The notes under the pieces were generated by a model. The model did not search any database. It was not told where the DNA came from and was given only the letters and a program-made list of their open reading frames with translations. DNA of 20,000 bases from an uncultured virus (IMG/VR IMGVR_UViG_2851731845_000003) (taxonomy: Duplodnaviria; Heunggongvirae; Uroviricota; Caudoviricetes), in IMG/VR virus record IMGVR_UViG_2851731845_000003; one strand, written 5' to 3'. The number at the start of each line of letters is the position of its first letter. Within the stretch, counting starts at the first letter, position 1. A program made the translations under genes and the position numbers. This document shows, piece after piece, positions 2,443 to 18,593 of the stretch.

Positions 2443-2657
2443 TACTCACCATCCGGTTTATAGCCGTGGCGGCGATCCCAAATCTTGACGCCAGCATTAA
2501 GCAAAAATGTCAGGGCCATAAAAAACAAAGAGCCAAGTACGCCGATAACTGTCCACTCATCAGGGGTGAATCCAGCTATCAGCTCTTTAACCCAAAAAAT
2601 GAAACTACCACCCGACACGGTATAGGAGACCGCTGTTGTTATATTGCTCATTTTCAT
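2442..2657 (-). CDS. Holin (pinholin-like, dual start Met-Lys-Met)
   Basis: 71 aa from ATG 2657 (MKMSN), two TM segments, SD GGGGAG, stop overlaps the endolysin start. Confidence 0.88.
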   Translation of the reverse strand: MKMSNITTAVSYTVSGGSFIFWVKELIAGFTPDEWTVIGVLGSLFFMALTFLLNAGVKIWDRRHGYKPDGE

Positions 2658-2696
2658 AGTCTCCCCCTCCCGGACGGGCTGGGCGTGTAGTGGAAA

Positions 2697-2724
2697 TAAA
2701 AAAGGCCACCATCCGGCAGCTCTA
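2697..2724 (-). terminator. Putative terminator after the mom-like gene
   Basis: Minus strand GCTGCC-GGAT-GGTGGC then CTTTTTT. Confidence 0.55.
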
Positions 2725-3450
2725 CTTGTTCCCTCCCGGTTTTGGATATGGGAGAGGTTTAAACAGCTTCGTGTTGAGCCGTTTTCTTGCCCGCTTATTG
2801 AGAAACTTGATATAGCGGAACTGGGTAAATTTATGTGCTGTTGCACGGTGAAAATTAGCTTGAAGATGCAAGCCCCGCGCACCTGCTTTACTGGCCTTGG
2901 TTGTTAAAGCAATTTTGTGGTACCACTCGCCGTCTAATTCGTAGAACGTGCTTTGATGGCTACCCACATAATCAAAGTTGCTAGCCTGATACACCACCCC
3001 GAAGCGACCGCACCGCTCATCAGCAAATGTCTGCACCCACTCAACACCGGGGTGAAGCAATTTGATAGTTTTGAGTGCGTAACTGATCGCCCGTGATTCC
3101 GTATTCGTCAGCATGTCGTCGTGTACCCAGAGTCGGTTTAACTCCATGTATTGCCTGTTACCTGTTCCCTCAACGACTCGCCCTCCGCTGCTGGGGTTCA
3201 TTGCGTAACCCCATTGCATAACGCCAACTAGATCGCGCCCGGAGAAAATACCGAGGTGCAAATATGAGTTGTTCACTATGCGCTTGCTGTAATGAAAGTG
3301 GATAATAACGAGGCGAGCCAACCAGACGGGGATTGTGGCAACGTGCAGGTCTGAACATCCGTACCCCACGGTTACGCCGTCATAAACTACCGGAGCAGGC
3401 TTACCCACGGCGCGGGATGCGTTTTTGTAACTTAACTTTTTCATGGTCAT
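2722..3450 (-). CDS. mom: Mom-family adenine modification enzyme (methylcarbamoylase, GNAT fold)
   Basis: Close match to Mu Mom motifs [73 protein letters not shown]; start is 3450 or 3444. Confidence 0.95.
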
Positions 3451-3478
3451 ATATACAGTATTCCGTTAGGATACCACC

Positions 3479-3626
3479 GCTGACGTTAGCAGGGTGGGCC
3501 TTGGTTATACTCATGACCGGAAACATGGGTGTAATGGCCTCTGCATGGTGCAAACATGCCGGGGTCGCCCATTTCTAACGAGTGATAGATGATAGCCGCT
3601 TGACTCAAAAGGTCAGGCGGTTTTTT
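3479..3626 (+). ncRNA. Putative antisense RNA opposite the mom leader
   Basis: TGGTCA(3444-49)-17-TAGGAT(3467-72) promoter; three-way junction 3495-3571 whose G-U pairs form only on +; terminator 3594-3626. Confidence 0.6.
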
Positions 3627-3644
3627 GTTGAGAGGCAGAAATAG

Positions 3645-3670
3645 AAAAACCCGCACAGATGGCGGGTTTC
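3645..3670 (-). terminator. tR'-like terminator after the late promoter
   Basis: AAACCCGC-7 nt-GCGGGTTT stem with T tracts in both orientations. Confidence 0.8.
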
Positions 3671-3717
3671 TTTTAATTTCGTCGCTTGCGTGTACAGCTC
3701 CGCGAGCTTATGTCTAA

Positions 3718-3745
3718 ATCATATATTTTTTGTTCAAATAGTCAA
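3718..3745 (-). promoter_or_regulatory. Late promoter pR'
   Basis: TTGACT(3745-40)-16 bp-TATGAT(3723-18) overlapping the end of Q, followed by a terminator. Confidence 0.7.
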
Positions 3746-4306
3746 AGTTTTTTTCTCAAATCTTTTTATGTCTTTATCAAAGGCATCACTCATCGGGCGA
3801 TAAAGCATATATTCGGCAGTGCTAATCCAGGCATCAATACGGCGGCGACACGTTGAAATGGAAAGCTCTGGGTGTGCCTCCTGCATTTCCTCCGCCATCG
3901 TGTAACGTTTCTTTTTATAAATGTAATGCTGCTGCAGTATCCCAATTAACCCAGGGGTCGATTGTAGAACCAGGCCAACAACCGAATCCATTAATAGCCC
4001 CTCATCATCCGTACAATAGATTAGATTACTATGGGCCTTGGGGTTGTTAAGGTCGCCAAATATCTCGAACAATTCCTCTTTTGATAAGCCTGATTTTCTC
4101 AGTTGGCTAATAGCGGCTTTTAATGCGGCTTTAGTTATTTGTTGTTTTGCCAATAATCGAGAAAATACCCCCTGAGCCCCTCCTGATTTCGCTATACGTG
4201 ACCAGCGCCCCCACATCTTCAACTTACCCTTGAGCCAAATAAGCTCTAACGTATTTAAGTGTAACTCGTTGCCATCAGCCTTACCGCACGTTGTCGGATA
4301 AATCAT
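3734..4306 (-). CDS. Late antiterminator Q-like protein (DUF1133 family)
   Basis: MIYP...LKGKLKMWGRWS signature, C-terminal HTH, position just before pR' and the lysis genes. Confidence 0.8.
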   Translation of the reverse strand: MIYPTTCGKADGNELHLNTLELIWLKGKLKMWGRWSRIAKSGGAQGVFSRLLAKQQITKAALKAAISQLRKSGLSKEELFEIFGDLNNPKAHSNLIYCTDDEGLLMDSVVGLVLQSTPGLIGILQQHYIYKKKRYTMAEEMQEAHPELSISTCRRRIDAWISTAEYMLYRPMSDAFDKDIKRFEKKTLTI

Positions 4307-4587
4307 AATTTCCCCTCCTTTCTCAATATATTCTGTGTGCGCATAACGCCCTCTGCGTGATATAGCCGCGCCGTGTCGCCATCAATTAAACGAGTGCGCC
4401 GATCACATTCGTCATGACATGCACTACATCCCCATGCGGCCTGTTCATCAGAGGGTTTAATTCCGGTACCGCAGGTTCCTGCCAGTCGGTAATGAGTGAG
4501 CACCACGGTTTCAGGGTTGCCATTGCATACACCCGGAATACGGATCTGGCACTCGCGGCCCCTTGCCTCTTTGCGTAAATTAGCCAT
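4303..4587 (-). CDS. DUF1364/YbcO-like Zn-binding protein
   Basis: LRKEARGRECQIRIPGVCN...HYRL...CSACHD. Confidence 0.88.
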   Translation of the reverse strand: MANLRKEARGRECQIRIPGVCNGNPETVVLTHYRLAGTCGTGIKPSDEQAAWGCSACHDECDRRTRLIDGDTARLYHAEGVMRTQNILRKEGKL

Positions 4588-4595
4588 GATTGCCC

Positions 4596-5189
4596 CTAAG
4601 CCGCATAACTCATTAATTGACTGGCGGCGTTCTCTGCCTCGGATGGATGACTGAATGATTTACTGAGAATGAAAGTCCATAGAACATTCAGCACTGCTTT
4701 GTATAAATCGTTGAATTCCAACTCGTCCATTTTCGAGAATGAAATAGAGCGAGGTTCGCGCAGCGTTGAGCCGTCCGGTAGTTCGTATAGGTCATAATGT
4801 CCCGACTCAACGGTTACCCAACGACGGAAAGCGTGGAATGATTTTGCAGTGGATAAATTCGCAGTCCGTTTACCGGCCACCAGCGCCAGATAATCATCAG
4901 CTATTTCATGAAGTACGCCCTCATTCCCCACATAGGAAATAAGTTGGCTTACATAACCGCGCAGGAATTTAAGTTCGAATGGTGATATCGCCCCGCCCCT
5001 TGGCTCCCAATATTCAAAACCAAGGTTGAGCAGCGAGAAGAATTTACGATGAAACGGCGCATTACGCACACGTTTAAATTCGCCAGTGACAATAGTCCCC
5101 AGCTTGGTGTTTTTGACAAAATCCTCAGCATCCGGCGTGGCCGGTACCAAGATCCCACCTGTTGATTTGGTAAAACTATACTGTGCCAT
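4596..5189 (-). CDS. DUF1367 family protein
   Basis: RVRNAPFHRKFFSLLNLGFEYWEP and PRSISFSKMDELEF motifs. Confidence 0.85.
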   Translation of the reverse strand: MAQYSFTKSTGGILVPATPDAEDFVKNTKLGTIVTGEFKRVRNAPFHRKFFSLLNLGFEYWEPRGGAISPFELKFLRGYVSQLISYVGNEGVLHEIADDYLALVAGKRTANLSTAKSFHAFRRWVTVESGHYDLYELPDGSTLREPRSISFSKMDELEFNDLYKAVLNVLWTFILSKSFSHPSEAENAASQLMSYAA

Positions 5190-5257
5190 TTCCGCCCCCG
5201 GATATATGGCACAGCAGCACGATATTTAGGTTATCGGGTGTTCAATCCGACACTTAT

Positions 5258-5266
5258 ATAATAACA
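5258..5266 (-). promoter_or_regulatory. Putative extended -10 promoter for DUF1367-DUF1364-Q
   Basis: TGTTATTAT on the minus strand, about 70 nt upstream of ATG 5189. Confidence 0.45.
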
Positions 5267-5294
5267 GAATCAATCGAATTATTTTCAATAAGTT

Positions 5295-5714
5295 TTAACT
5301 GACATCAATACCAGTAAGATCTTTAATTTTCTTCTTAGCAAACCCTTCCGCAAGAGATTTAGTCACTGACATTAATGTTGATAATCCCTCATCTTTAAAG
5401 CCAGTCTTGATTGTCTGCCAAACTTCTTTCTGTCTTAAGTCAGCAATGAAATCATGGCCCCTAGCTGTTAGCCGAAGAGGAAGTAATACCCAGTCATATC
5501 CTTCATCATCAGAATTAGAATAAACGATACCAAAGCCTTGTCCACCATCAATACGGCAGATTAACCCTTGGTCGTCGAGTAATCTCATATGAAAAACGAA
5601 ATCTTCATCACACTTAAAACCTTTTAACTCTAACTCTTCAATATTAGTTTCAGGCTTTTCCGATGACTCAAAGGCATCAAGTAAATTACGCAAATACTCG
5701 TGATTAATTTTCAT
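5295..5714 (-). CDS. DUF2513-like winged-helix protein, AT-rich accessory gene
   Basis: Start ATG 5714 with AGGAG SD; LRLTARGHDFIADLR..VW motif. Confidence 0.75.
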   Translation of the reverse strand: MKINHEYLRNLLDAFESSEKPETNIEELELKGFKCDEDFVFHMRLLDDQGLICRIDGGQGFGIVYSNSDDEGYDWVLLPLRLTARGHDFIADLRQKEVWQTIKTGFKDEGLSTLMSVTKSLAEGFAKKKIKDLTGIDVS

Positions 5715-5742
5715 TAAATTGCTCCTGTGACATGTCATATCA

Positions 5743-6096
5743 CTATATATTTAATTTAGTCTCATGCCAGCCAAGAGTTTGCCAGCATTCACTTTCACCG
5801 ATAAATGCGCAACCAAGACTATCACCCGGTAGAGCATCACCACACTTACCACACCTGCGCCCCGCTTGCTGTTTGAGCAGCGCCTGCAGCTCGGCGTTAT
5901 CTTTTCGGATCAGCATAGTGATGTATTCGTCCATGTCGTACGGTTCACGCTGTGGGCGGCGTAGGGCACAGTTCTGCTGTAACATTTCTTTCTCTTGCTG
6001 GTCTATCGTCGCTATTAATTTATAGCTGCCACTATCACGCTCTTTCTGACGCTGTAGGCGTTTACGGGCCGCAGCCCGCTCTTTGGTATCAGTCAT
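5743..6096 (-). CDS. Hypothetical protein with C-terminal Cys cluster
   Basis: MTDTKERAAARKRLQRQ...CGKC..C..C; start overlaps the end of the adenine MTase. Confidence 0.75.
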   Translation of the reverse strand: MTDTKERAAARKRLQRQKERDSGSYKLIATIDQQEKEMLQQNCALRRPQREPYDMDEYITMLIRKDNAELQALLKQQAGRRCGKCGDALPGDSLGCAFIGESECWQTLGWHETKLNI

Positions 6097-6928
6097 GCGG
6101 ATGCTCCCGTTTATCAATGTTAGGGCTGAACCATAGGCATTCTATTTTGGTGACCGTGCCGCCCATACCAGCGCTGGCCTGTGCTGATTTTGTTTCTTTG
6201 CACCACCCGGCCAGCATGTCGTTATACAGTTCGCTGTCATAACCGGAAATGATCGACATACCTTTCAATTTTCTGACCGGCTCGAGTAATTCAATATGGT
6301 CTTGCTCGGTCATTTCATGGCGATATGAATAACCAGTTGGTTTCCAACGTTGGCGCGTTTCCGGCAAATATGGCGCATCAATGTAATTCAAAGTGCTGTC
6401 AGTATCATGATCCAGTAACACCTGAACGGCTGGGCGGTTCTCTATCAATACGCCAAGTAAACGCGAACCAATGGCGGCTAAATTATCAGGATAAGACGCC
6501 CATAACTGCTGGGCTGTCGAATATTCTCGTTTGGTATCAGTCCTAAACCCTGATTTATTGGCTGTGGCCGATGCTGAACTAAATCCCATTGTGGCCTTAA
6601 TTACCGTCCTGCGGGCCTGTTCCAATTCATCATCAATAGGCTCATAGGCAAAGTTAAACTCTTCACGGCTATATGGTGTCAGCACACATAAATCACGTAA
6701 ACGTATGTTCATTACTGGATCTTGCAGCACTCGGAATAGGTTCACAATTTCGCCATCAAGATCATTATAAACCTCAGCGTGGGAGCGGGCCTTTCTCAGT
6801 AGAACTGATGCCGCCCCCCCGAACGGCTCAACATAGCAACGGTGAGCAGGGAAAAAACTGGTTATCCATTTCGCTAATCGGAATTTTCCGCCGTGATATC
6901 TGATGACCGGATGTTTTATCTCTGTCAT
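6089..6928 (-). CDS. DNA adenine methyltransferase (D12/Dam class)
   Basis: YHGGK, YVEPFGGAASV, YND and DAPY motifs; ATG 6928 overlaps the C5-MTase stop (ATGA). Confidence 0.92.
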   Translation of the reverse strand: MTEIKHPVIRYHGGKFRLAKWITSFFPAHRCYVEPFGGAASVLLRKARSHAEVYNDLDGEIVNLFRVLQDPVMNIRLRDLCVLTPYSREEFNFAYEPIDDELEQARRTVIKATMGFSSASATANKSGFRTDTKREYSTAQQLWASYPDNLAAIGSRLLGVLIENRPAVQVLLDHDTDSTLNYIDAPYLPETRQRWKPTGYSYRHEMTEQDHIELLEPVRKLKGMSIISGYDSELYNDMLAGWCKETKSAQASAGMGGTVTKIECLWFSPNIDKREHPHD

Positions 6929-9120
6929 GCCGCCACCCTCCAGATACACAGCTCTGGCATATTCGCCCTTACCAGTGCCTCGGCAAAGGGAGGCGGTACT
7001 GCATTACCACACCTTGCCACCTGCTCAGATTTAGGCCAGATTGTGCCGTCAATATCCCGGTCAATAATGTAATCTGGCGGGAACCCGCTGGCGTTGTACA
7101 GCTCGCGGGCAATCAACATGCGCATGCATATATCAACGATGATGTATTCGCCCACAGATAGATATTGTGGTCGTGGCGCGGGGAATAAATGCCAGTCGTC
7201 CGGTAAATCGCTGAAATGATCCACCAGTCGTGCGCAGTTCCATGCGTTGTAGCGCTGCTTGTCGGTCAGTGGTTCGGCATCAAGATTGCTTTCTACCAAG
7301 CCAAAACGTTCTTTGGTTGTCACAGCATGTATCGGCTCTGATAAATCCACCGCGCCGCCAGTGCCGTAATACTTGGTCAGAAATGCGTTTACCAGTCCGA
7401 CATGATTACCGCCCGCGGTTAAAGTCGGTACCGGTTCGGTGATGGGTTTACCATCGCGACATGTACCACGCAGTTGTACCAGGTGAGATGTACAAAGCGC
7501 ATGGTGATCAACCGTGGTGATGGTGTGTAATGGCTCGTTAATATCGATGCCTGCACCGGTATAATTGCCGCCATAATGTTTTACCAGATGAGCGGCCACC
7601 ATTCCCATTGCATGACCATTACCACCGGGGCGAATCGATGTACCGGCCGTGATAGTCGATAATGGCTCATCACATTGTTGGCCTATAGCGCCGGTCCTAA
7701 ATTTGGTTATATGCGGTGCCAGTATTGCACTGGCTAACTGGCTTTTACCGCCCCCACCCGCCGTAACGGTACCCAGTGGAGTATTGATATCATTTGCCGT
7801 GCTGTTGCCGAACTGACGCACAACCACCGGCGCAGCGATAGCAAAACCATGTGTTCTAGTGATTGTTTGTAACGGGTCACGCAATGATTGCCCACGGAAA
7901 CAATCATATTTGGTTTTAGTGCTGGTGTGGTTGCACTTCACTGCATACGGCTCCAGCAACAAATGCTCAGCCTTGCTGGTGATAGTGGTTAGCGGCTGAT
8001 CTAGCGGATACTGCAGACGGTCGCCACCGAAACCGGTTTGGCCCAACCTCACAATAAATGGATCAGGGTTATCGATAACAAAGCGTTGCAGCCCTTTGAC
8101 GATGCGCCGCAAGGTATTATCAGCCAAATCCTTTTTGCGACCGAAAATAGAGCGTGTTGGCTGGCTCCAGTCGATACACTCGGCCGCCGTGCGCCAAGGT
8201 TGCAACATGCCAGAAAGCACATCTGCAGAGTTTGGTGCGCCGTGGCTTGGCTCTGGCCATACAACCGACTCGCCGTCACAACGCCCAACCACAAACAACC
8301 GCTTTCTGATAGTGGGTGTACCGTAATCACAGGCTTTTAGCTCCCGGTGATCCACGTTATACCCCAACCCCGAAACCAGTTTCACCGCCTCAGGACTATT
8401 GATATCTATCTTCAAGAATTCACATACTTCTGCTAGTGCCGGGTGATTGCCATCAATACCGGTACCTAGCATGCCAATAAACGCCTTGAACGTTTCACCT
8501 TTACGGGCTGGATCAGGTCGGTGATTACCCTCACTATCCGTTAACAATGGCCCCCAGCCGCGAAACTCTTCGACATTTTCCAGCATCAGAAAACGTGGGC
8601 GAACTGCCAGCGCCCAGCGTAATACCACCCAGGCTAAACCACGAATTTCTTTCTTAACTGGCGTGCCACCCTTAGCTTTGGAGAAATGGCGGCAATCAGG
8701 ACTGAACCAGCCAAGCAATACCGGCAGACCGCCGGTAGATATCAGCGGGTCGACACTGAAAATATCCTCAGGATAATGCAACGTTCGCGGGTGATTAATG
8801 GCATGCATCGCCATGGCTACCGGATTATGGTTCATCGCGATGTGTGGTTCATAGCCTAATGCTTGCTTGATTCCCTCGCAGCTCCCACCGCCACCAGCGA
8901 ACCCAACGACAACCAGACCATCCTGCAAATCAGGTCGTGCAACTGTAATTTCTTTGCGCCGCGCCCATGCATGAGCCGCCTTTTGAATGTTGCGCGGATC
9001 TTCCCGCGTCAAAAACATTTCGTTCATCTTGGCCAGTAGCTGCTGTTGCTCTGACTCACTCATTGGGTGAACAGGAATGACTGACGAGGCGCATTGCTGA
9101 ACTTCAGTAGGCCAGATCAT
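6925..9120 (-). CDS. DNA cytosine-5 methyltransferase with an expanded variable region
   Basis: FAGGGG (I), SPDC (IV), ENV (VI), RKRLF (VIII) and GNAV (X) motifs. Confidence 0.93.
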   Translation of the reverse strand: MIWPTEVQQCASSVIPVHPMSESEQQQLLAKMNEMFLTREDPRNIQKAAHAWARRKEITVARPDLQDGLVVVGFAGGGGSCEGIKQALGYEPHIAMNHNPVAMAMHAINHPRTLHYPEDIFSVDPLISTGGLPVLLGWFSPDCRHFSKAKGGTPVKKEIRGLAWVVLRWALAVRPRFLMLENVEEFRGWGPLLTDSEGNHRPDPARKGETFKAFIGMLGTGIDGNHPALAEVCEFLKIDINSPEAVKLVSGLGYNVDHRELKACDYGTPTIRKRLFVVGRCDGESVVWPEPSHGAPNSADVLSGMLQPWRTAAECIDWSQPTRSIFGRKKDLADNTLRRIVKGLQRFVIDNPDPFIVRLGQTGFGGDRLQYPLDQPLTTITSKAEHLLLEPYAVKCNHTSTKTKYDCFRGQSLRDPLQTITRTHGFAIAAPVVVRQFGNSTANDINTPLGTVTAGGGGKSQLASAILAPHITKFRTGAIGQQCDEPLSTITAGTSIRPGGNGHAMGMVAAHLVKHYGGNYTGAGIDINEPLHTITTVDHHALCTSHLVQLRGTCRDGKPITEPVPTLTAGGNHVGLVNAFLTKYYGTGGAVDLSEPIHAVTTKERFGLVESNLDAEPLTDKQRYNAWNCARLVDHFSDLPDDWHLFPAPRPQYLSVGEYIIVDICMRMLIARELYNASGFPPDYIIDRDIDGTIWPKSEQVARCGNAVPPPFAEALVRANMPELCIWRVAA

Positions 9121-9623
9121 TGCGCCCCCTCACGTAGTCTTGCTGCGAAATCAAGAATATTGGAAATCTCGCCTGTATCTGCCATTACACCAACGTCAAA
9201 AGCTTGTACGTGACGGTGCTGCGCAAATTTTTCAACACCCCCCGCCTCCACATCATTAAGAGCCAGAATGGTTGCAGGGACACTAATTACTTCGTATAGC
9301 GCCTCAAATGCATCTTCTTCATAGTCGCCACATGAAGAGATGCCATCTACCGTATTCAGATGCCCCCTGTTGTAACCGGCGTTATATACATGGACGCAGG
9401 CTTGTTGGAGTGCTGCGTTCTCGGCAACAATCACATTATATTTCCCCTGCCACTCCAAACACTCCCGCTCGTAGTGCTTTGCTGTGCGCCGGTTCTTATT
9501 AGCTGATGCCACCAACTCCGCTATACGGTCAGCGATGCCGTTTAACACCTCACTTTCACGTGGTTCCACTCTTTCCGCTGCTGAACGAATTGCAGCAATC
9601 ATGCCATCGGTTGATATATTCAT
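9117..9623 (-). CDS. Hypothetical coiled-coil protein (Ead/Ea22-like)
   Basis: AENAALQ coiled-coil and FAARLREG C-terminal patterns. Confidence 0.65.
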   Translation of the reverse strand: MNISTDGMIAAIRSAAERVEPRESEVLNGIADRIAELVASANKNRRTAKHYERECLEWQGKYNVIVAENAALQQACVHVYNAGYNRGHLNTVDGISSCGDYEEDAFEALYEVISVPATILALNDVEAGGVEKFAQHRHVQAFDVGVMADTGEISNILDFAARLREGAQ

Positions 9624-9871
9624 TTGGTCTCGCCTCTGTGGTCTCTGCGGTCACGCCAGTAATTTAAGCGCTCTTTAAAAAACTCTCGGTAATGCACCGG
9701 TACCCGTTCAATCGCTTCAAGTACATGAGCGCGGTTGGTCCTGCGCTCGTACAGGTTTTTGATTAAGCCGCTGGCTCTCAAATCAAGATTTAGCTTTTCT
9801 TGGTATTCCTGAGGCCAGAGGCAAATGTTGTACGGGAGTCCGGGCGGGAGATAATCCGATTGCCCGGTCAT
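9620..9871 (-). CDS. Hypothetical protein
   Basis: 83-aa ORF with GGGGAG SD; stop overlaps the next start. Confidence 0.7.
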   Translation of the reverse strand: MTGQSDYLPPGLPYNICLWPQEYQEKLNLDLRASGLIKNLYERRTNRAHVLEAIERVPVHYREFFKERLNYWRDRRDHRGETK

Positions 9872-9875
9872 GGTA

Positions 9876-10256
9876 TTAACTCCCCATGCCTACCGTGCTC
9901 ATCAGTTGATTTATCCGAGATACTCGCAAGCAGTACGCCAGCTCCTTGTCATCAAATGGCATTCTGGCGGGCTTGGTTCGGGGTTCGCTTTTGTTGCGTT
10001 TTACTTGCGTGTCAGAGAATCGGAAAAAATCCTCTGAGATACTGTTGAGGGTGTATTGAGTCTTTCGACCATTGCGGCGGGTAATGTCTGCGTGGGGTGA
10101 TCGAACCATACCCTGTACTCGGTAGCGCAAAACGCTAATCGGCATTTCAGCATTAGGAAATTTTAAAGTAATAGCCTCGATAATCTGGCTGTAGTTCATG
10201 CTTTGGCCCAGCATAACCGCTGCCAATTCACGGGTAGTTAGTTCACGTTTTTTCAT
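9876..10256 (-). CDS. Hypothetical protein, possibly winged-helix
   Basis: 126-aa ORF after dnaB, preceded by AGAGGCAAGACC. Confidence 0.75.
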   Translation of the reverse strand: MKKRELTTRELAAVMLGQSMNYSQIIEAITLKFPNAEMPISVLRYRVQGMVRSPHADITRRNGRKTQYTLNSISEDFFRFSDTQVKRNKSEPRTKPARMPFDDKELAYCLRVSRINQLMSTVGMGS

Positions 10257-10300
10257 GGTCTTGCCTCTTTTTTGGTTACTTAAACGCTGGTCAGGCGCGG

Positions 10301-11674
10301 TTAAAATTTTGGTGTTGAATAGTGTTTTTCTTTGGCCGGTGGCCTTGATGCCTCTTTTGCCATTCGGCTGGCTTCTTTTGCCACCAGTTGATCCACCGGT
10401 AGAAAGTGGCCGTTTTTAAATTCCTGATAAACGGTACCAGGCTCGCCAAATCGGTTTTTGGTTACTATGGCCTCAGCAAATCTTGCTGCCGGACTATCTG
10501 CGTTATAAACCGCTTCTCGATACAGCATGATGATGCTGTCGGCGTCCTGCTCGATTGAACCTGAGTCCCTGAGGTCGGAACTGATTGGCCTGCGGCTACC
10601 TGGTGGCCGTTCATCCACTTTTCGCGACAACTGGCTTAGTGCAAAAATCGGGGTGTTTATCCGACCGGCCAGCGTTTTTAATCCGCGTGAAATTATTCCG
10701 ATCGACAGGTCATTACGCTCCGCCTTTGGTTTCGTAATCAGGCCAAGGTAATCAACCATCACCATTCTCAGTTTCGGGTACCGGCGCTTGTGCGTTTCTG
10801 CGATAGCCCGTATCTGATCGATGGTTAGCTCACTGGCATCAACGATCCAAATATCACGACCATTCAATGCCTGTAGCGCGGAGTTAATACGCGCCCAGTC
10901 CTCATCACATAACGTTTTAGGGTCGCGTAATTTAGACACTGGCAAGTTACCAGCACCGGCAACGGAACGCTCAACCATCTGTAGGGAGGCCATTTCCATA
11001 CTGAATATCAGCGCACCACCGCCGTTCTGTGTAGCACCCTCAACAATCTTTAATGCAAACTCAGTCTTACCCATCCCCGGACGCCCAGCGATGACAACCA
11101 AGTCCTGAGGGTTAAAACCGCCCGTTATTGCATCCAGCTCGACAATGCCGCTTTGCAGGTTCATCGACTCAATCTCACCATTCATGCGCTTATCGAGCAT
11201 ATCCATGTAGTTGGGTAACAAATCGTTCAGATGTACGGGGATGATGCCGCCGCTGTCTGCCGTCATATCGATCAGTTGTGTTACCGCACCCTGTATTACC
11301 TGATCGCGCTGTTCCTGATTGTTAGCCCCTCGGATGCCGTCAGCAGCGGTCTGGAATAATGCGGTCATGGTTCGGCTATACCAGGTCTTACGGGCATGTG
11401 CGGCATATCCTTTCAGATTCGCTACGTTTCCCGGCATACGGACGATTTCAGACAGAGTGGCCAGACTACTGCCGCCCAATGCCTCACTGACAAACAGGAC
11501 ATCGATCAACCCTTTAGTCAGTGCCTGCTTTTTAATTTCCGCATACGCAGAACGGTATATTCTTATGCTGAATGCTTCCTCTGGCAGTGTGGCAATCACC
11601 TCCAGTGCATCGGGGGTAGAACCGCCATAAAGCAGACCAGATAAAATTGCTGCTTCCAATTCTTGAGGCTTCAT
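10301..11674 (-). CDS. dnaB: Replicative DNA helicase, DnaB family
   Basis: GRPGMGKT Walker A, FSMEM, VDYLGL, LSQLSR, DLRDSGSIEQDAD, KNRFG. Confidence 0.97.
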   Translation of the reverse strand: MKPQELEAAILSGLLYGGSTPDALEVIATLPEEAFSIRIYRSAYAEIKKQALTKGLIDVLFVSEALGGSSLATLSEIVRMPGNVANLKGYAAHARKTWYSRTMTALFQTAADGIRGANNQEQRDQVIQGAVTQLIDMTADSGGIIPVHLNDLLPNYMDMLDKRMNGEIESMNLQSGIVELDAITGGFNPQDLVVIAGRPGMGKTEFALKIVEGATQNGGGALIFSMEMASLQMVERSVAGAGNLPVSKLRDPKTLCDEDWARINSALQALNGRDIWIVDASELTIDQIRAIAETHKRRYPKLRMVMVDYLGLITKPKAERNDLSIGIISRGLKTLAGRINTPIFALSQLSRKVDERPPGSRRPISSDLRDSGSIEQDADSIIMLYREAVYNADSPAARFAEAIVTKNRFGEPGTVYQEFKNGHFLPVDQLVAKEASRMAKEASRPPAKEKHYSTPKF

Positions 11675-12717
11675 AGCGCACCATCACGGGTTTTTCTTAA
11701 GACTTCCGGTTTCATCAGATAATCAAAGTTTGCCCGCCAGCCTGCCCCATCATCACCACCGAAATAAAACACGGTTGCCTGTCCGCGAAAGGCTTCGAAG
11801 TAGCTCTGGAACGCTTCAAGGTCTTTGGTTTTGAGGTATTGGAGTAATTCGCGGATGGCGTGTTTACGGTCCTGATCGATTTCAGCCGGTGGCAAAACAT
11901 CGCTGAATACAAGGTTATACGCAGTAATGACCTCATCGCAATCAATCCGCCCAGCAGACTCAGACCATGCACGGGCATCAGCCAGATAACCATCGAACCG
12001 GTTTACACGGCAGATATTCGCAGGTTTGGCATACTTGCCGTTGCGGGGTTTCCAGGTATTTACTACCCAGAGGGCCACTAATTTCAAATCAGCCAGCGCG
12101 TAGGCTTTGCGTGATTTCGTTGCCGTCAGCAAGGTTTCGAATGGGCTAGAATCTTCACACCGGGTATGGGTGAGTTCGTTGTAATACGCCAAAGCCCTTT
12201 CAGCGTCAGCGAGAGTATTTTCGGTTTCCCCTTGAGGGGTAAGGGGTGTTTTATTCTTTGTAGTATTCTTTGTAGTATTCTCTTGTAACATTTGGTCATT
12301 CTGACTAGATGTGATCTTGTCATTCTGACCTGCTCCCAATTGGTCATTTTGACCAGATGCATTTGTAGAATTAAGCAACTCCAATTGGTCATAATTTATC
12401 GAATACCACTTAGTGCGGTTATAGGGATCACTGAGCAACACTTTATGTAACTGACCAACTGAAATTAGTTTCATTTCCAGCAGGTTTGCCAACGTGCGTT
12501 TAATCGTACTATCAGACCAAAAGCCTAATTCATCGGCCCATTCAGCCGCCGATTTATAAAACCACTTCCGGCCTTCATGACGGTGATCCGACCGACATAG
12601 CCAATAATGAATTTGCTGAACGAGTATGGCTTCATTGAGGCCAATCTCTTTTGCAAGCGAGGGTAGTACTTGCAGCGGAGGTTCATTAATTAACAGCTTG
12701 GCGCTATTCATCTTCAA
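11671..12717 (-). CDS. Phage replication initiator (O-like)
   Basis: N-terminal wHTH (LLINEPPL..GLNEAIL.QQIHYW), internal iterons, C-terminal WRANFDYLMKP; upstream of DnaB. Confidence 0.88.
   Translation of the reverse strand: MKMNSAKLLINEPPLQVLPSLAKEIGLNEAILVQQIHYWLCRSDHRHEGRKWFYKSAAEWADELGFWSDSTIKRTLANLLEMKLISVGQLHKVLLSDPYNRTKWYSINYDQLELLNSTNASGQNDQLGAGQNDKITSSQNDQMLQENTTKNTTKNKTPLTPQGETENTLADAERALAYYNELTHTRCEDSSPFETLLTATKSRKAYALADLKLVALWVVNTWKPRNGKYAKPANICRVNRFDGYLADARAWSESAGRIDCDEVITAYNLVFSDVLPPAEIDQDRKHAIRELLQYLKTKDLEAFQSYFEAFRGQATVFYFGGDDGAGWRANFDYLMKPEVLRKTRDGAL
12252..12391. repeat. Replication origin: iterons plus AT-rich 12-mers
   Basis: GTCATT(C/T)TGAC at 12295, 12319 and 12343 (24-bp period), half copy at 12388; TATTCTTTGTAG x2 plus one variant at 12252-12287. 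Confidence 0.85.
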
Positions 12718-12938
12718 ACCCCCAGCGCTTCCGCTATTTGCCGACAGGCAGACTGATAATCGTCAGCTGATAGGTTCATCAGGCGCAGGTCTGCTTTCTT
12801 CTGCTCGTACTGTTCCCACACGCTATATGCGGCAACCTGACGCCCTGCAAAAATTGGCTCTATGTCAGCTATGCTTGCCGGTTGCCCGTTCAGCCGGAAC
12901 CCGTTGCAGTAGGTAATTTTATCGATAGATGTAAGCAT
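12714..12938 (-). CDS. Hypothetical protein
   Basis: 74-aa ORF preceded by AGAGGCAAGACCA; stop overlaps the initiator start. Confidence 0.75.
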   Translation of the reverse strand: MLTSIDKITYCNGFRLNGQPASIADIEPIFAGRQVAAYSVWEQYEQKKADLRLMNLSADDYQSACRQIAEALGV

Positions 12939-12954
12939 TGGTCTTGCCTCTGTT

Positions 12955-13419
12955 TTATACGGTGGTCAGCCGGTGGTGTTGTGGTCTGATTGCGTGAAGT
13001 GCCGCAACAGCGCCCGATATTCTTTGTGACATGTCACAGCCATCTAATAGAACAGCGCTAATTGCTGCGGCAAACTCTCTGCTGGCAATCGAAACCAAAT
13101 AATTAACGGTCTCGCCATTTACTCTGGCCCGCCGTTCTGCTGGGAGCGCCGCTTTAAGTACCGGTGATAATTCCAAGACCTTTCGCATTGATGCTTTTGA
13201 ATCCCCGCGCAACCAACGGAATAACTGCTGCCGGTTGTTGTTGATAGACTTCCAATCAGCGTTGCCCTCCTCGTCTTCAATGGGAGTGAGGCGTACTGAA
13301 TCCGTACTGATATTAAGCAAGAAAAACATTCTGCTGATCTCGATAGCTACATGCTCCTGCCCCCGTTCTGCTGCCCACGCCTGTACTTCAGCTTTAAGGG
13401 CGTTAACTTGTTGTTCCAC
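12955..13419 (-). CDS. CII-equivalent, YdaT family
   Basis: GTG start, AGGAG SD, follows cro; WAAERGQEHVAIEI..NRQQLFRWL pattern; TTGATT-N6-AATCA sites nearby. Confidence 0.8.
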   Translation of the reverse strand: MEQQVNALKAEVQAWAAERGQEHVAIEISRMFFLLNISTDSVRLTPIEDEEGNADWKSINNNRQQLFRWLRGDSKASMRKVLELSPVLKAALPAERRARVNGETVNYLVSIASREFAAAISAVLLDGCDMSQRISGAVAALHAIRPQHHRLTTV

Positions 13420-13442
13420 GTTGCGTCTCCTGTCGCAGGAAA

Positions 13443-13486
13443 TTGATTATTGATAATCAGATTTTAAAAGTGGGTTTGGTTAAGCT
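13443..13486 (+). promoter_or_regulatory. pRE-like CII/YdaT-activated promoter
   Basis: TTGATT-ATTGAT-AATCA, 21 nt, then TAAGCT, pointing toward cI. Confidence 0.7.
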
Positions 13487-13665
13487 GCGCTCTGATACAT
13501 CGATGGGTCATATTTCAATTCGCCATGAGTAATGCGTTCAATCTTCATTGCTTGTTTCTCAGGGATAATTTCCCCCCAGCGACAAACTGCCGGGTGTTTT
13601 ATTCCTAAGGCCATCGCGGTATTTACTACACCGCCAAAAAACTTGACTACCTCTTTCTTGTTCAT
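13480..13665 (-). CDS. cro: Cro-like repressor
   Basis: 61 aa from ATG 13665, GAGGAG SD, HTH (FGGVVNTAMALGIKHPAVCRW), divergent from cI. Confidence 0.9.
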   Translation of the reverse strand: MNKKEVVKFFGGVVNTAMALGIKHPAVCRWGEIIPEKQAMKIERITHGELKYDPSMYQSAA

Positions 13666-13691
13666 AGGGACTCCTCTTTGATCATAAAGCG

Positions 13692-13758
13692 AAGGTAACA
13701 AAAGGTACATAACAATGCAAACACTTTTCACCACACTATCGCGTAACATTGGTTACAT
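13692..13758. promoter_or_regulatory. OR region: pR and operators
   Basis: pR on minus strand TTGCAT(13720-15)-17-TACCTT(13697-92); operators AGGTAACAAAAGGTACAT 13693-13710 and GCGTAACATTGGTTACAT 13741-13758. Confidence 0.8.
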
Positions 13759-14419
13759 GAAAACTGAAATGAATGACCGCATCCGTATTCGCAGACTGCA
13801 ACTGGATCTCACTCAAGTCCAATTAGCCAAGGCTATTGGAGTGAGTCGAGTATCAGTTACGAAATGGGAGTCAGGGATAACCAAACCAGATGGAGAGAAT
13901 CTTCACCGACTGGCGCAAGTACTTTCATGTACGCCAGAATGGTTACTCTATGGTACCGGGGATTTACGCCAGGTTGATGATACAAAAATCAAGCCTCTCA
14001 CCGCCGTGCCTAATGCCATACCTGTTATTTCATCAGTTCAAGCAGGCACTTGGACTGATACATATTCAGCGGCCCGAATTTCTGATGTTCTTAGATGGTG
14101 TACTACCACAGTGAAGGTTTCTGAAAACGCTTTTGCCTTAGATGTTCGTGGTGAGTCGATGACAAACCCCAATGGGTCACCTTCTATACCTGAAGGTTCT
14201 ACAGTCATCGTCGAGCCTAACTATGGTTCTATTGAAGATTTATACGGCAAGATAGTGGTGGCCATTATTGATGGTAGTTCCGAGGCCACAATTAAAAAGC
14301 TAGTCGTCGATGGACCTAATAAATATCTCATGCCATTAAACCCTAACTTTAGACCGATCGAAATCAACGGCAATTGCCGTATTCTCGGTAGAGTAGTACA
14401 GGTCACCCAAGACCTGTAA
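13757..14419 (+). CDS. cI: CI repressor (HTH + S24 peptidase)
   Basis: HTH LTQVQLAKAIGVSRVSVTKWE; A-G cleavage site VQAG; catalytic GESM and TIKKL; likely start ATG 13757. Confidence 0.95.
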   Translation: MKTEMNDRIRIRRLQLDLTQVQLAKAIGVSRVSVTKWESGITKPDGENLHRLAQVLSCTPEWLLYGTGDLRQVDDTKIKPLTAVPNAIPVISSVQAGTWTDTYSAARISDVLRWCTTTVKVSENAFALDVRGESMTNPNGSPSIPEGSTVIVEPNYGSIEDLYGKIVVAIIDGSSEATIKKLVVDGPNKYLMPLNPNFRPIEINGNCRILGRVVQVTQDL

Positions 14420-14424
14420 TCAAT

Positions 14425-14449
14425 AGCCCATCACCTCGGTGGGTTTTCT
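14425..14449 (+). terminator. Terminator after cI
   Basis: GCCCATC-ACCTC-GGTGGGT then TTTCTT. Confidence 0.65.
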
Positions 14450-14460
14450 TACGCCCTTAA

Positions 14461-14514
14461 ATGTAACTTATGGAACATCTATCTATTGACATGGTAGGTA
14501 ACTATAGGTACATT
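14461..14514 (+). promoter_or_regulatory. pL promoter with two OL operators
   Basis: TTGACA(14486-91)-17-TACATT(14509-14); operators ATGTAACTTATGGAACAT 14461-78 and AGGTAACTATAGGTACAT 14496-14513. Confidence 0.88.
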
Positions 14515-14600
14515 CACGATATCAACACGGCACAGCAGCCGATAAGCAGTTTAGGTTTAGTACGTTCTGGCAGCCGGGAAGACGGCAAAAGAGGAAGGTT

Positions 14601-14753
14601 ATGAAAGCAACTAAAAAGAAAACGAGTAAATTCCAGATCCAATATCGCTACTGTGGAATGTGGGCTAACGGAAATACTTACTCAACGCGCAAAGAAGCTG
14701 ATGATTACGCACGTAATACTGGCCGTGATTATCAAGTAGTCAAAGTACGGTAA
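14601..14753 (+). CDS. Small basic hypothetical protein (50 aa), first pL gene
   Basis: Below the ORF-track cutoff; SD GAGGAAGG; MKATKKKTSKFQIQYRYCGMWANGNTYSTRKEADDYARNTGRDYQVVKVR. Confidence 0.7.
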   Translation: MKATKKKTSKFQIQYRYCGMWANGNTYSTRKEADDYARNTGRDYQVVKVR

Positions 14754-14924
14754 CAACAGAATTTGGGTTGTTGCATTGGAGGAGAACCCCGCGCCAAGGC
14801 TCGGCATGATTACCACAGTGCAGCAGCCCAAACCAATAACGTAGCCACGACGGGAAAGTGTGGTGAGGCAAGACCAAAGATCTGACCCGCTGGCCCGGCG
14901 TAATGGGCACCAAATTACAGACGT

Positions 14925-15042
14925 AAAAAAACCCACCTAAGTGGGCTTCTTTACCCCGGGTCACCGACCAAAGTTAACCGGGAAGCTAACGGGGACCAAC
15001 CCGTTAACAGAGGCAAGACCAACGGCTTACGCCATCAATCTT
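14925..15042 (-). ncRNA. Putative ~118-nt sRNA with UUGGUC loops, complementary to the repeated RBS motif
   Basis: Extended -10 TGATATACT (15057-49); 5' stem with GUAA tetraloop; two UUGGUC-loop hairpins; terminator GCCCAC-TTAG-GTGGG plus U7. Confidence 0.65.
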
Positions 15043-15066
15043 AAAAACAGTATATCAGGAGTTGCT

Positions 15067-15402
15067 ATGACAGCACTACAGATAACCACCCAGCTATACA
15101 TCCATGTAAATCCGCATTCAACAATGAAAGCTAACCGCTTTATTGTGAGTACCTGTGACATGTCACAATCAACACCAGCATATGCGTTACTTGAAACCCG
15201 CGAAATCACTATCGCTTTCGACGAACCCGATCCATTTGAAATCATCAGTAAGCAGGTTGATTCACTACGCGCTCAAAAAGAGCGGCTGGCGGCTGAATCA
15301 TATCGGCATCAGTTGCTAATTGATGATCAGATTCAGGCATTGCTATGCATCGAGCACAGTACTCCATCGAACGTATCTGATGATACCGAAATTCCTTTTT
15401 AA
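15067..15402 (+). CDS. Hypothetical protein (111 aa)
   Basis: CAGGAG SD before ATG 15067; ends in an acidic DDTEIPF tail. Confidence 0.75.
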   Translation: MTALQITTQLYIHVNPHSTMKANRFIVSTCDMSQSTPAYALLETREITIAFDEPDPFEIISKQVDSLRAQKERLAAESYRHQLLIDDQIQALLCIEHSTPSNVSDDTEIPF

Positions 15403-15457
15403 TTAGTCATACATCAAAGACCAAGATCCGTTTAAAAACCAAAGAGGCAAGACCAAC

Positions 15458-17656
15458 ATGACTGTATTTATTTGTTTATTCGAGCCGAAAAAAGCGGCTC
15501 TCAAAAATGGGGCTATACCACTGGTTATAGCTCTGGAAGCCATAAATAAGAAAATGGCATCCGCACTGGCCATCGGGAAATTATGGGAAGCCTACCCCGC
15601 TGCCGGTGATAACTTTGCTGATCCGAAAATCTGTGAGGATACTGTCGGGCAACCGCGCCCTGCTGTGGGTGATTTCGATGAGCAGTTCGCACAGGATAAT
15701 ACCTTTGATGGCAAAGTATGGACGCCAAATACCGTGGCATCGCCAGAGGATGAGGATGATAACGACGGCGACGAACAAGGCGATGATTCTGGCTTGGTGA
15801 ACTACGCCAAGTTGGGCATTGATGTCAAAGTTGGCAAGATCCTAATGTATGGCTTGCGTGACATTGGTACACACGAACTATCACTAGTGTATGACCTGAT
15901 TAACGACGACGAGGGTGATGCTGGGCTGCGTTCAATTATAACGGCGTTGGCTGGTATACCGGCTGTAGGCGCAATGTATCAGGAGTCGGTCAAAGAACTG
16001 GTCGACGCCATTAATGTGAAGTTTCCTAAGACCCCTCAATTTCCTGAAGTACAGAAGTTTGCCCAAAAATGGGTTGATGAACCCAATAAGCGGGACGAGT
16101 TAACTGGAACGAAGAAAGTTACCCGTATAAACACACCCACGCCTGATGCGCCAATTAAACGCGGCTTTGACCACACCTATAAAACGCTTGATCTCGAAGT
16201 CGCCCTCGCCTTGGTACCCACTGTTTTGAACTGTTGGGAAATCTACTCAGCAGAAATGAGGCAGGCAAAAGAGCTGATGGATAGCAATGATGATGCCTGG
16301 CGCAAGTGGTCTACCGAATTGCGCGTTCGCAGCGATGCGTTGTCTATTCCGCGTGAAACCATCTTTGAGATGATCCGCGCGGGTAAAGAAAAACCTATCT
16401 TCCTAACCGATGCCGCAGCCAGGAAAGAATTTATCTCACAATATTTAGCCGTTAAAGGCCCACAGCCCGCAGTTAAAAATCTAGGCGACGGCAAGTTCTC
16501 TATTGATGGTCTGGTCGGTGGTGAACAGCCAGCGGCAAACAGTGAAACAAAACTGGCATTGGTTGCCAATTCTGGGCCAGAAACTGAAACAAAACCGCCA
16601 ATTGTTGCAACAGAACAGGAAAACCCTTCACAGGAACCTATCTCCGATAATGCCGCTCAACAGGCTAAAGAGACATTGGATAAGTTGGGTTACAGCGTTT
16701 ATGCCTCAACTGATGAGAAGCCAGCAGAGATAATTGAGACGGCACAGCAAAATGACGTTGCTACCGTAGCGGTTACGGCTGATGAGTTCCAACACCGCGC
16801 CGGGTTGATTGAGCAAGAGATTGCGCAGAAATCCCCTGCGGAGCAAGAAAACCTGCATATCTGGAAATCAGTACAACGCACAGATCCACGCTTTACCAAA
16901 CCTGTAGAGGGTGCGGGATATGTAGCTACAAGCATTAACGCTGAATATATGTTTATGCGAGCCACCGAAGTATTCGGCCCAGTTGGTGAGGGTTGGGGCT
17001 ATACCATTCTTGAAGAAAAGATGCTTTCAGGCGCGCCAATGTCCGAGGCTATTTACGACGATAACAAGAAATATGTTGGTAACCGGCTTATTCGTGATGC
17101 CGATGGCACATTGATATGCGAACAAAATCACTCGATCAAAATTCAATTCTGGTACTCAGTCGAGGGTGATGTGCGTGGCGAGATCGAAAGTTACGGAGCC
17201 ACCCCTTACATGTATAAAACCAATAAAGGAATTAAGGCAGATAGCGAGGTAATCAAAAAGAGCCTCACTGACGCCATTAAGAAAGCATTATCTATGCTGG
17301 GCTTTAGCGCCGACGTATGGCTCGGCATGCACGATAACCCCGAGTATAAAGCAGAAAATGACATTGAGTTTGCTATCAAGAACGCCAGTGAAAAAGCTGG
17401 TGACTCAGTTCGTCTGCGCAAAGAACTGGATGAGAAGTTAACCAAAGTAGGCAATACCATTACGAGCGCCGTCACCACCAACGAAGTGAACAAGGTTTAT
17501 AGCACCATTGCGCGTGAAGTTGATGTACATCGCAAAGATGCCGAAGCCAAAGCCGATCACGAACACGCCAATTACCTCAAAACCCGCCTGCTTGCGTTAC
17601 ACCGCTTAACTGAAAAACGGGTTGCTGAACTTACCGCACAGGAGCCGACATTATGA
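15458..17656 (+). CDS. RecE-like N-terminal region fused to a Rad52/Sak-like annealing domain
   Basis: C-terminus TDPRFTK..INAEYMFMRATEVFGPVGEGWGY..KKSLTDAIKKALSMLGFSADV; N-terminus and LDLEVALAL block resemble prophage exoVIII N-regions. Confidence 0.7.
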   Translation: MTVFICLFEPKKAALKNGAIPLVIALEAINKKMASALAIGKLWEAYPAAGDNFADPKICEDTVGQPRPAVGDFDEQFAQDNTFDGKVWTPNTVASPEDEDDNDGDEQGDDSGLVNYAKLGIDVKVGKILMYGLRDIGTHELSLVYDLINDDEGDAGLRSIITALAGIPAVGAMYQESVKELVDAINVKFPKTPQFPEVQKFAQKWVDEPNKRDELTGTKKVTRINTPTPDAPIKRGFDHTYKTLDLEVALALVPTVLNCWEIYSAEMRQAKELMDSNDDAWRKWSTELRVRSDALSIPRETIFEMIRAGKEKPIFLTDAAARKEFISQYLAVKGPQPAVKNLGDGKFSIDGLVGGEQPAANSETKLALVANSGPETETKPPIVATEQENPSQEPISDNAAQQAKETLDKLGYSVYASTDEKPAEIIETAQQNDVATVAVTADEFQHRAGLIEQEIAQKSPAEQENLHIWKSVQRTDPRFTKPVEGAGYVATSINAEYMFMRATEVFGPVGEGWGYTILEEKMLSGAPMSEAIYDDNKKYVGNRLIRDADGTLICEQNHSIKIQFWYSVEGDVRGEIESYGATPYMYKTNKGIKADSEVIKKSLTDAIKKALSMLGFSADVWLGMHDNPEYKAENDIEFAIKNASEKAGDSVRLRKELDEKLTKVGNTITSAVTTNEVNKVYSTIAREVDVHRKDAEAKADHEHANYLKTRLLALHRLTEKRVAELTAQEPTL

Positions 17657-18153: not shown

Positions 18154-18197
18154 TTTATCCAGCCCCGGACCAACGGGGCATTATTGAGGCAAGACCA

Positions 18198-18563: not shown

Positions 18564-18593
18564 GATGGTAAACCAACACCAGGGAAAACCATC

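Follow-up and report, generated by a model that had tools for sequence, protein, structure and literature searches.

Covarying complementarity between the pL leader and the Q-operon leader in lambdoid phages with no recognisable N gene: a possible translational riboregulator

The stretch of DNA analysed here (the window) comprises 20,000 nucleotides (nt) of an uncultured virus of the Caudoviricetes (IMG/VR record IMGVR_UViG_2851731845_000003). On its minus strand lies an operon specifying a DUF1367 protein, the putative nuclease YbcO (DUF1364) and a Q-like antiterminator (Table 1), preceded by a leader of ~62 nt in which a 5′ stem-loop is followed by an open linker and then by a hairpin with the AUG of the DUF1367 gene in it. 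The leader of the transcript predicted to start at the divergent pL promoter, 9.3 kb away, contains a segment complementary to the linker and to 7 nt of the 5′ arm of this hairpin. In many related phages, of which Pectobacterium phage ZF40 is the nearest with a name, the linker and hairpin 5′ arm find their complement in the pL leader of the same phage. The simplest reading, and a very probable one, is that the two leaders pair as RNAs in trans. That such pairing activates translation of the Q operon, in a toehold-like (anti-antisense) manner, is suggested by folding models and is held here tentatively, at slightly below an even chance.

On the plus strand, the inverted repeats CTGTGCCAT (5181-5189) and ATGGCACAG (5206-5214) enclose TCCG-CCCC-CGGA (5191-5202). 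In the minus-strand mRNA they give a hairpin with an outer stem formed by CUGUGCCAU (5′ arm, 5214-5206) and AUGGCACAG (3′ arm, 5189-5181), and an inner stem UCCG/CGGA that presents GGGG, similar to a Shine-Dalgarno (SD) sequence, in its loop. The ATG that starts the open reading frame (ORF) of 197 amino acids (aa) is at 5189-5187, within the 3′ arm; the claim of the original prediction that the AUG is buried in this hairpin was borne out both by reading the sequence and by the minimum free energy (MFE) structure. A hairpin sequestering the start codon or ribosome binding site (RBS), the hallmark of leaders targeted by trans-acting RNA activators, is found in this MFE structure as in the 48 aligned leaders described below. 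On the other side, positions 14529-14557 read GGCACAGCAGC-CGATA-AGCAG-TTTAGGTT, and positions 5208-5232 read GGCACAGCAGC-A-CGATA-TTTAGGTT on the same DNA strand; because of this repeat the two divergent RNAs are complementary, AACCUAAAUAUCGUGCUGCUGUGCC of the Q-operon leader facing GGCACAGCAGC-CGAUA-UUUAGGUU of the pL leader. All the sequence statements made earlier on this complementarity (11+5+8 bp, 9.3 kb apart) hold. The calculated folding energies were −28.0 kcal/mol for the Q-operon leader, −19.1 for the pL leader and −58.9 for the dimer, a dimer gain of −11.8 kcal/mol. The AUG is paired when the leader is folded alone, and the dimer raises its probability of being unpaired from ~0 to 0.3-0.9; averaged over the AUG and six bases, this probability rises from 0.01 to 0.67 on pairing.

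Table 1. Positions in the window of the two leaders, their promoters and the genes concerned
Feature	Position	Strand	Evidence and remarks
Q-like antiterminator gene	3734..4306	−	DUF1133 + Phage_antitermQ; phrog_753, Q-like
YbcO/DUF1364 putative nuclease gene	4303..4587	−	PF07102, E 1.2e-43
DUF1367 gene, first in operon	4596..5189	−	Full-length PF07105, E 1.9e-76; phrog_319; 197 aa
Start-codon hairpin	5181..5214	−	AUG in 3′ arm; sequence and MFE structure
Linker (possible toehold) AACCUAAAUAUCGUGCUG	5215..5232	−	Unpaired in MFE structure; complementary to 14540-14557
5′ stem-loop GUCGG-AUUGAACAC-CCGAU	5233..5251	−	MFE structure; conserved loop YYUGAACAM
Candidate extended −10 promoter of the Q-operon leader	5258..5266	−	TG 5266-5265, TATTAT 5263-5258; predicted start ~5251
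cI-like repressor gene, upstream of pL	13715..14419	+	HTH_3 + Peptidase_S24; terminator after
Putative pL promoter	14486..14514	+	TTGACA 14486-91, 17-nt spacer, TACATT 14509-14; predicted start ~14521 (AUCAACA...)
pL-leader partner segment	14529..14557	+	GGCACAGCAGC-CGAUA-agcag-UUUAGGUU; ~+9 to +37 of predicted pL transcript
Conserved pL-leader box ACGUUCUGGCAGCCGGGAAGACGGC	14562..14586	+	Single occurrence in window

Judged from the window alone, the match is moderately unusual, not unique, and a chance resemblance, or a functionless relic of an old duplication, has to be weighed first. The 11-mer by itself is unremarkable and often expected, since at least two matches with at most one mismatch were obtained in 17 of 200 shuffles. 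In a cofolding scan with 60-nt windows, the one overlapping the pL site gained −14.6 kcal/mol (all windows: mean −5.6, standard deviation 2.5) and ranked just 12th of 2,623, which also fits chance. Against this, the gapped match scored 35, a value reached by none of 400 shuffles of the 71-nt query (mean 23.6, standard deviation 2.3, maximum 34). Comparison with relatives supplies the strong evidence.

Viral contigs searched with the DUF1367 protein gave 80 loci; the regions upstream of these, pooled with those of ZF40, a related genome and Gifsy-2, provided 48 distinct leaders for alignment. The homology of ZF40 and three related genomes to the window ends at ~5245-5250, where the leader starts. 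The leaders share a common plan: a −10 box, 6-7 nt, a 5′ stem-loop (loop YYUGAACAM), (A/C)ACCU, a variable linker and the AUG hairpin, the 3′ arm of which is AUGGC(G/A)CAG. The −10 box appears as TATAAT, TACAAT, CATAAT or, often, TGATATAAT, or as part of TTGAC[T/C]-18-CATAAT, and the spacing of 6-7 nt between it and the 5′ stem-loop is seen in ZF40, G002, G022, Gifsy-1/2 and the viral loci. All six pairs of the 5′ stem-loop vary on both sides, and 88% of its alignment cells are paired; the core pairs of the start-codon hairpin are 96-100% paired, and its pair 66-102 (CG in 29 leaders, UA in 15, UG in 2) follows the synonymous use of GCG or GCA as codon 2. Covariation was scored on one structure specified by the authors, in which 87.2% of the cells pair overall (86.6% for helix 2), whereas sliding the partner columns lowers this to 23-41%; the observed covariation score was reached in 0 of 500 shuffles. 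The start-codon hairpin is therefore conserved among relatives with compensatory changes. That it serves as an intrinsic terminator was rejected, since in most types its stem has no U-tract after it. Rfam returned no match at E ≤1 for positions 5181-5251 or 14521-14590, nor at E ≤0.1 for the leader or the pL leader of Gifsy-2, and megablast of a type-G leader against complete Escherichia coli genomes gave no match. L058 has, at 5262-5297, an additional, diverged leader copy made up of stem-loop, linker and hairpin arm, 4.7 kb upstream of DUF1367.

Lack of conservation in relatives had been named in the original prediction as grounds for abandoning it. The complementarity is conserved, and covaries, among phages carrying DUF1367: in ZF40, Gifsy-1, Gifsy-2, mEp237, pAEv1818 and dozens of viral contigs. 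In these, as in the window, the pL segment is complementary to the inhibitory arm of the hairpin plus the accessible region adjacent to it, and it lies 4-9.4 kb from the leader. In ZF40, ACCCAAACAAAGCAACUGCGCC of the Q-operon leader can pair with GGCGCAGUUGCGCUGUUUGGGU of the pL leader at 20 of 22 positions; the DNA reads GGCGCAGTTGC-TTTG-TTTGGGTT at the former site and GGCGCAGTTGC-GCTG-TTTGGGTA at the latter, ~130 nt past the promoter, the window counterpart being GGCACAGCAGC...TTTAGGTT at both. Pairing in L037 would involve 24 Watson-Crick pairs out of 27. Leaders with short linkers have short cores in which changes of one or two bases are exactly compensated, as in AACCUGAUGCGC/GCGCAUCAGGUU and AACUUGAUGCGC/GCGCAUCAAGUU; the same holds for mEp237 (AACCUACUGCGC/GCGCAGUAGGUU, 12 of 12) and for AACCUGCUGCGC/GCGCAGCAGGUU and CACCUGCUGCG/CGCAGCAGGUG, and pAEv1818 has 14 bp, one of them G.U. 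In the window type, ZF40, L037, L066 and types F and G, where the linker is longer, so is the pL segment, and every leader type of the viral loci proved to have a pL segment to match. Indels as well as substitutions are thus matched between the two sites, and the distance between the conserved ends ranges from 2 to ~13 nt depending on the type. In every case the complementarity sets in just past the 5′ stem-loop and stops inside the hairpin 5′ arm, and the pL copy resembles the hairpin 3′ arm (GGC[A/G]CAG).

The pL leaders have further features of their own. A box, ACGTTCTGGCAGCCGGGAAGACGGC in the window and GTTCCGCCAGCCTGGCGACAAGGGC in relatives, directly follows the partner segment in nearly all of them, ahead of quite different first genes. 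In most type-A relatives, a structured insert of ~70 nt separates the pL copy precisely into its two halves. This cassette (...CAGGCAGGACGCCCACGAAGTAGC...GGATGA...), which has no match in Rfam, is present after pL in most relatives (L010 ~2330-2400, L002 ~1640-1705, L011, and many of L015-L043, leftward sense) and absent from the window phage (14540-14550), L020 and L028. The pL RNAs of Gifsy-1/2 (L095 ~6056-6100) and of types F and G begin with a hairpin of their own, GACAAC-AAGCGCAUC-GUUGUC, in which the partner is partly in the loop and partly paired.

The association was quantified from both sides. Sixty-two DUF1367 loci had 9 kb or more of upstream sequence; in these, the single highest-scoring same-strand match to the leader lay beside a pL box in 34, 31 and 23 at score thresholds of 20, 22 and 24, the corresponding values being 1, 0 and 0 for shuffled leaders and 0, 0 and 0 for the reverse complement. 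In an independent sample taken from the pL side, a 25-nt box pattern led to 80 loci, 64 of which extended 8 kb or more in the 5′ direction; the leader was found at 52 of the 64. When the samples were pooled, without de-duplication of contigs, 115 leader instances had at least 8 kb upstream; exactly one pL-box candidate was found for 81, several for 17 and none for 17. Over the 11 box-proximal positions, the 81 instances with a single candidate matched at 10 or more in 50 cases, at 8-9 in 25 and at 7 or fewer in 6. For the 31 distinct combinations the matches summed to 270, compared with 209.9 (standard deviation 8.9, maximum 244) when partners were permuted, and none of 20,000 permutations reached the observed sum. 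Predicted duplex energies agreed: across 21 hand-picked pairs, the two worst included, cognate duplexes averaged −29.1 kcal/mol vs −22.0 for non-cognate ones (0 of 20,000 permutations), and when each of 10 types was represented by a single pair, the figures became −29.4 and −22.0 kcal/mol (1 of 50,000). Complementarity kept through so many variants in distinct phage lineages leaves chance or a relic strongly disfavoured, with a probability close to negligible.

Both copies being on the same DNA strand, the repeat might instead act as DNA, either as a protein-binding site at both places or as a short stretch of homology for recombination. Both copies are located where modules meet and homology to relatives is lost, and the mismatches carry no strand signal of the kind expected from G.U pairing (14 vs 11 transitions). 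Several observations make this reading very unlikely. The distance between the conserved ends is not constant, and the ~70-nt insert sits inside the type-A pL copy, an arrangement tolerable for an RNA three-way junction and not for a protein-binding DNA site, which favours RNA. The site is also oriented oppositely relative to the two promoters, and recombination linkers would have to match between phages, not between two sites of one phage. As specific candidates, sigma-54 and CRP-type sites were rejected on spacing, judged by eye.

If the leaders do pair as RNAs, the extent of the complementarity, from the end of the stem-loop into the hairpin 5′ arm, together with the mimicry of the 3′ arm by the pL copy, favours strand invasion. 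In the activation proposed, the DUF1367-YbcO-Q operon would be transcribed from its own promoter, with the AUG held in the leader hairpin, the SD in its loop and the 5′ stem-loop serving as protection. As repressor levels drop and pL becomes active, the first ~40 nt of the pL RNA would bind the linker and invade the hairpin 5′ arm, freeing the DUF1367 start codon for translation. The YbcO gene starts 8 nt past the DUF1367 stop codon, and the ATG of Q overlaps the YbcO stop (ATGA); this close coupling could hand translation on to YbcO and Q, and late genes would then depend on pL activity as they do on N in lambda. Since the hairpin 5′ arm is transcribed before the 3′ arm, kinetic capture is possible. 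In collinear position, the pL box offers GUUC as the complement of the GAAC in the loop of the leader 5′ stem-loop (a complementarity that reaches 7 nt in L066), and this invariant loop contains a YUNR-type CUGA. A meeting of GAAC and GUUC could, speculatively, nucleate the pairing; both being invariant, covariation is uninformative about it. We infer that the RNAs meet, what sign the effect has and that it is coupled to Q.

Promoters are predicted at both sites from conserved boxes. A candidate extended −10 promoter for the Q-operon leader had been suggested; it is present, and aligns with −10 boxes at equal distance in relatives. It was not listed by a simple sigma-70 scan of the window because it has no −35 box. 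Operator-like sites give eight matches in the window at up to three mismatches and none at 5200-5350, around this promoter, so a lock independent of the repressor would make sense here. A perfect palindrome, CTGTGACATGTCACA(G/A), which may be an operator for some regulator, occurs in the window at 13024-13039, 15153-15168 and 5724-5737, and once in ZF40 (L001 ~1853-1868), ~100 bp upstream of the DUF1367 leader. At the other site, a perfect operator-like sequence, AGGTAAC-N3-AGGTAC, covers the promoter spacer (14496-14511) and recurs between cI and cro, and the spacing from promoter to ATC(A/G)AC is the same in relatives; these sequence features make its identity as pL plausible. In keeping with the stated lack of a recognisable N gene, neither Pfam nor PHROGs gave an N-family match among the first three ORFs of the operon it would serve. 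The first (50 aa) matches nothing in either collection, and the second and third correspond to phrog_2479 (function unknown) and an exonuclease.

Not everything speaks for activation, and the following points weigh against it. No leader occurs within 10 kb of 12 of the 64 pL boxes, 17 of the 115 leader instances lack a pL-box candidate, and for the G022/G015 leader type no pL box or partner was found within 18 kb. Many type F and G pairs contain one to three central mismatches, and the mosaics L060/61/67, L070 and L083 are poorly matched. In 29 aligned pairs, some of them spurious, the mismatches were not skewed towards G.U in the proposed sense (14 vs 11 transitions, with 34 transversions). 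The rank of the pL site in the energy scan of the window, given above, belongs here too. Equilibrium cofolding of 14 validly trimmed cognate pairs (two mis-trimmed pairs were left out) increased AUG accessibility by at least 0.2 in six, by ~0.1 in three, Gifsy-2 among them, and by less than 0.05 in five, including the insert-bearing type A and both type-F pairs. The folding check suggested in the original prediction therefore came out in part: AUG opening is predicted for the window pair, while among the relatives' pairs it is clear in just six of the 14. Finally, a duplex over the linker might just as well obstruct ribosome standby.

The last point leads to a reading in which the same pairing represses or delays. 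The pL leader would cover the CA-rich open linker, a potential ribosome standby or enhancer region for an otherwise structured start codon, or make a cleavable duplex, such that translation of the Q operon is held while pL is active and freed when Cro lowers pL, the whole acting as a timer. The covariation evidence applies equally to this reading, and the five pairs of 14 that keep the hairpin closed with the linker bound accord with it (F_L045 gains −16.1 kcal/mol with its AUG unchanged at 0.18). RNase III needs a duplex of some length, and 20-27 bp is conceivably enough; cleavage of double-stranded RNA is thus conceivable for the longest duplexes, those of the window, ZF40 and L037, which have 20-27 bp. 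Short-core types pair over just 11-14 bp, though, the reach of the complementarity into the 5′ arm would be superfluous for blocking standby, and AUG opening is what is predicted for the window pair. Repression is accordingly considered unlikely, if still to be reckoned with.

Regulation could also run in the reverse direction, the Q-operon leader RNA being an antisense regulator of the pL transcript that titrates leaky pL RNA in lysogens or alters folding, processing or read-through near the cassette and box. Such a role would suit a leader with a stabilising 5′ stem-loop and a promoter free of operator-like sites, and PMC4825925 gives a transcription start for the homologous operon, mapped in Salmonella cultures. 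The pL partner, moreover, always adjoins the conserved box, brackets the cassette in type A, and in types F and G forms the 5′ hairpin of the pL RNA itself (GACAAC/GUUGUC). This reversed direction is nevertheless judged quite unlikely: the partner lies at least 35 nt upstream of the first RBS of pL, the box offers no known function to disturb, and the conserved AUG hairpin would be left without a role.

Activation of the Q operon by the pL leader would have parallels among known systems. DsrA, RprA and ArcZ acting on rpoS, and RNAIII acting on hla, are trans-acting RNAs that activate translation by an anti-antisense mechanism, and the arrangement here is similar in that a leader hairpin sequesters the start and the trans RNA is complementary to the 5′ arm and an open stretch. 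It differs from them in that a second mRNA, that from pL, supplies the proposed trigger with its 5′ leader in place of a dedicated small RNA (sRNA), and in that both partners are encoded by the phage, 4-9.4 kb apart; activation is, here, a proposal. In synthetic toehold switches the RBS is in the loop, the AUG in the stem and a single-stranded toehold on the 5′ side, the trigger being the complement of toehold and stem. The layout of the Q-operon leader and the complementarity of the pL trigger are alike, but this is a natural element, the stem invaded is short (5-7 nt in most relatives) and models often keep the hairpin closed. In lambda, the N/nut system makes a pL product necessary before Q, and hence before the late genes, can be expressed; the logic from pL to Q is the same, whereas the link proposed is RNA-RNA and translational rather than antitermination, and the first pL gene of the window gives no N-family match. 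Phage antisense RNAs such as OOP and paQ of lambda, sar of P22, c4 of P1/P7 and the CI RNA of P4 are repressive, and cis-antisense or part of the same transcript. They too are short complementary phage RNAs that set the levels of key regulators, Q included (paQ), but the partners in the window are encoded in trans on divergent operons and are not cis-antisense to each other as are those of the OOP/paQ type.

Two further phage systems invite comparison. IsrK of Gifsy-1 is described as a trans-acting prophage RNA that activates a translationally inactive transcript, leading to AntQ (PMC4825925). Encoded downstream of antQ, IsrK targets a read-through isoform of itself (orf45-anrP), and its effect on antQ passes through an antirepressor (PMC4825925). 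The two cases share the prophage family, an antQ operon homologous to that of the window, and Q as the end product. The antQ operon of Gifsy-1 consists of SL2582, SL2581, SL2580 and SL2579, and its transcription, as mapped in Salmonella cultures, is stated to begin ~1,600 nt before antQ (same source). In the Gifsy-1 record, DUF1367 (STM2620) starts 1,556 nt before Q and is preceded by the same leader; the stated start falls where the conserved leader lies. The available portion of PMC4825925 makes no mention of complementarity between the pL and antQ leaders. The second system is that of HK022, a lambdoid phage devoid of N, the put RNA of which is ~70 nt long and structured, lies directly after pL and acts in cis on RNA polymerase (PMC9378689). 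The ~70-nt structured cassette of the relatives resembles put in size and place after pL; it differs in that it is absent from the pL leader of the window, and in that put acts on RNA polymerase, not by pairing. Homology of the cassette to put was rejected, since no similarity to the pL/pR region of HK022 (best local score 23) and no Rfam family were found. Neither the full-text literature, in a search whose coverage mostly leaves out subscription journals, nor Rfam yielded a description of complementarity between pL and Q leaders. The class of mechanism is already known, from the activation of rpoS by sRNAs and from the action of Gifsy-1 IsrK on its own long isoform (PMC4825925). What appear to be new are the leader of the pL mRNA as the proposed trigger, the Q-operon leader as the target, and the conservation and covariation of the pair across a large family of N-less lambdoid phages.

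The surroundings of the two leaders are as follows. Directly downstream of Q, at 3745-3645 on the minus strand, there is a pR′-like promoter (TTGACT-16-TATGAT) followed by a strong terminator; a pR′-tR′ arrangement downstream of Q is the usual target of Q. After these elements comes a gene of the Mom family of DNA-modification proteins (2722-3450, minus strand). Only positions 2619-20000 of the window map to assembly contig C2 (41,687 bases, about the size of a phage), and they do so from its base 1, indicating that the phage was assembled as its own contig and that the window crosses the contig end. Within the proximal part of the pL operon, an isrB-like sRNA lies in antisense at 14926-15012 (minus strand), with a terminator hairpin at 14915-14943; the match, at 34.8 bits, falls just short of the gathering score of 35, and clearer copies are present in G002 (38.4 bits) and Gifsy-2 (99.3 bits). 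The most likely start of the cro-like gene is the ATG at 13666-13664 (61 aa) rather than that of the 89-aa ORF (13749), which would give a divergent control region of 48 bp with an operator-like site at 13693-13708. A recurrent motif, (A/T)GAGGCAAGACCA(A), immediately precedes the start codon in many genes, both on the plus strand (14864, 15009, 15443, 18185 and 18743) and on the minus strand (9625, 10256 and 12939), and is also seen in the ZF40 pL leader; it looks like a translation-initiation region common to the phage group.

The timing of late-gene expression is poorly understood in lambdoid phages that lack N, and the Q proteins of such prophages are toxic if mis-expressed, AntQ of Gifsy-1 being an example (PMC4825925). 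For this family, meaning ZF40-like phages, Gifsy-1/2, mEp237 and many prophages of Klebsiella, Salmonella and Citrobacter, it may be that the 5′ end of the pL transcript is a trans-acting riboregulator that licenses Q, an RNA AND gate taking the place of the N link; we put this somewhat below an even chance. If true, it would explain how a potentially toxic Q operon with a promoter of its own stays silent in lysogens, and how induction is relayed to lysis and to the cargo that prophages carry in their late region. The two elements are short, widespread and have natural compensatory variants, and would, in that case, constitute natural orthogonal pairs of riboregulators.

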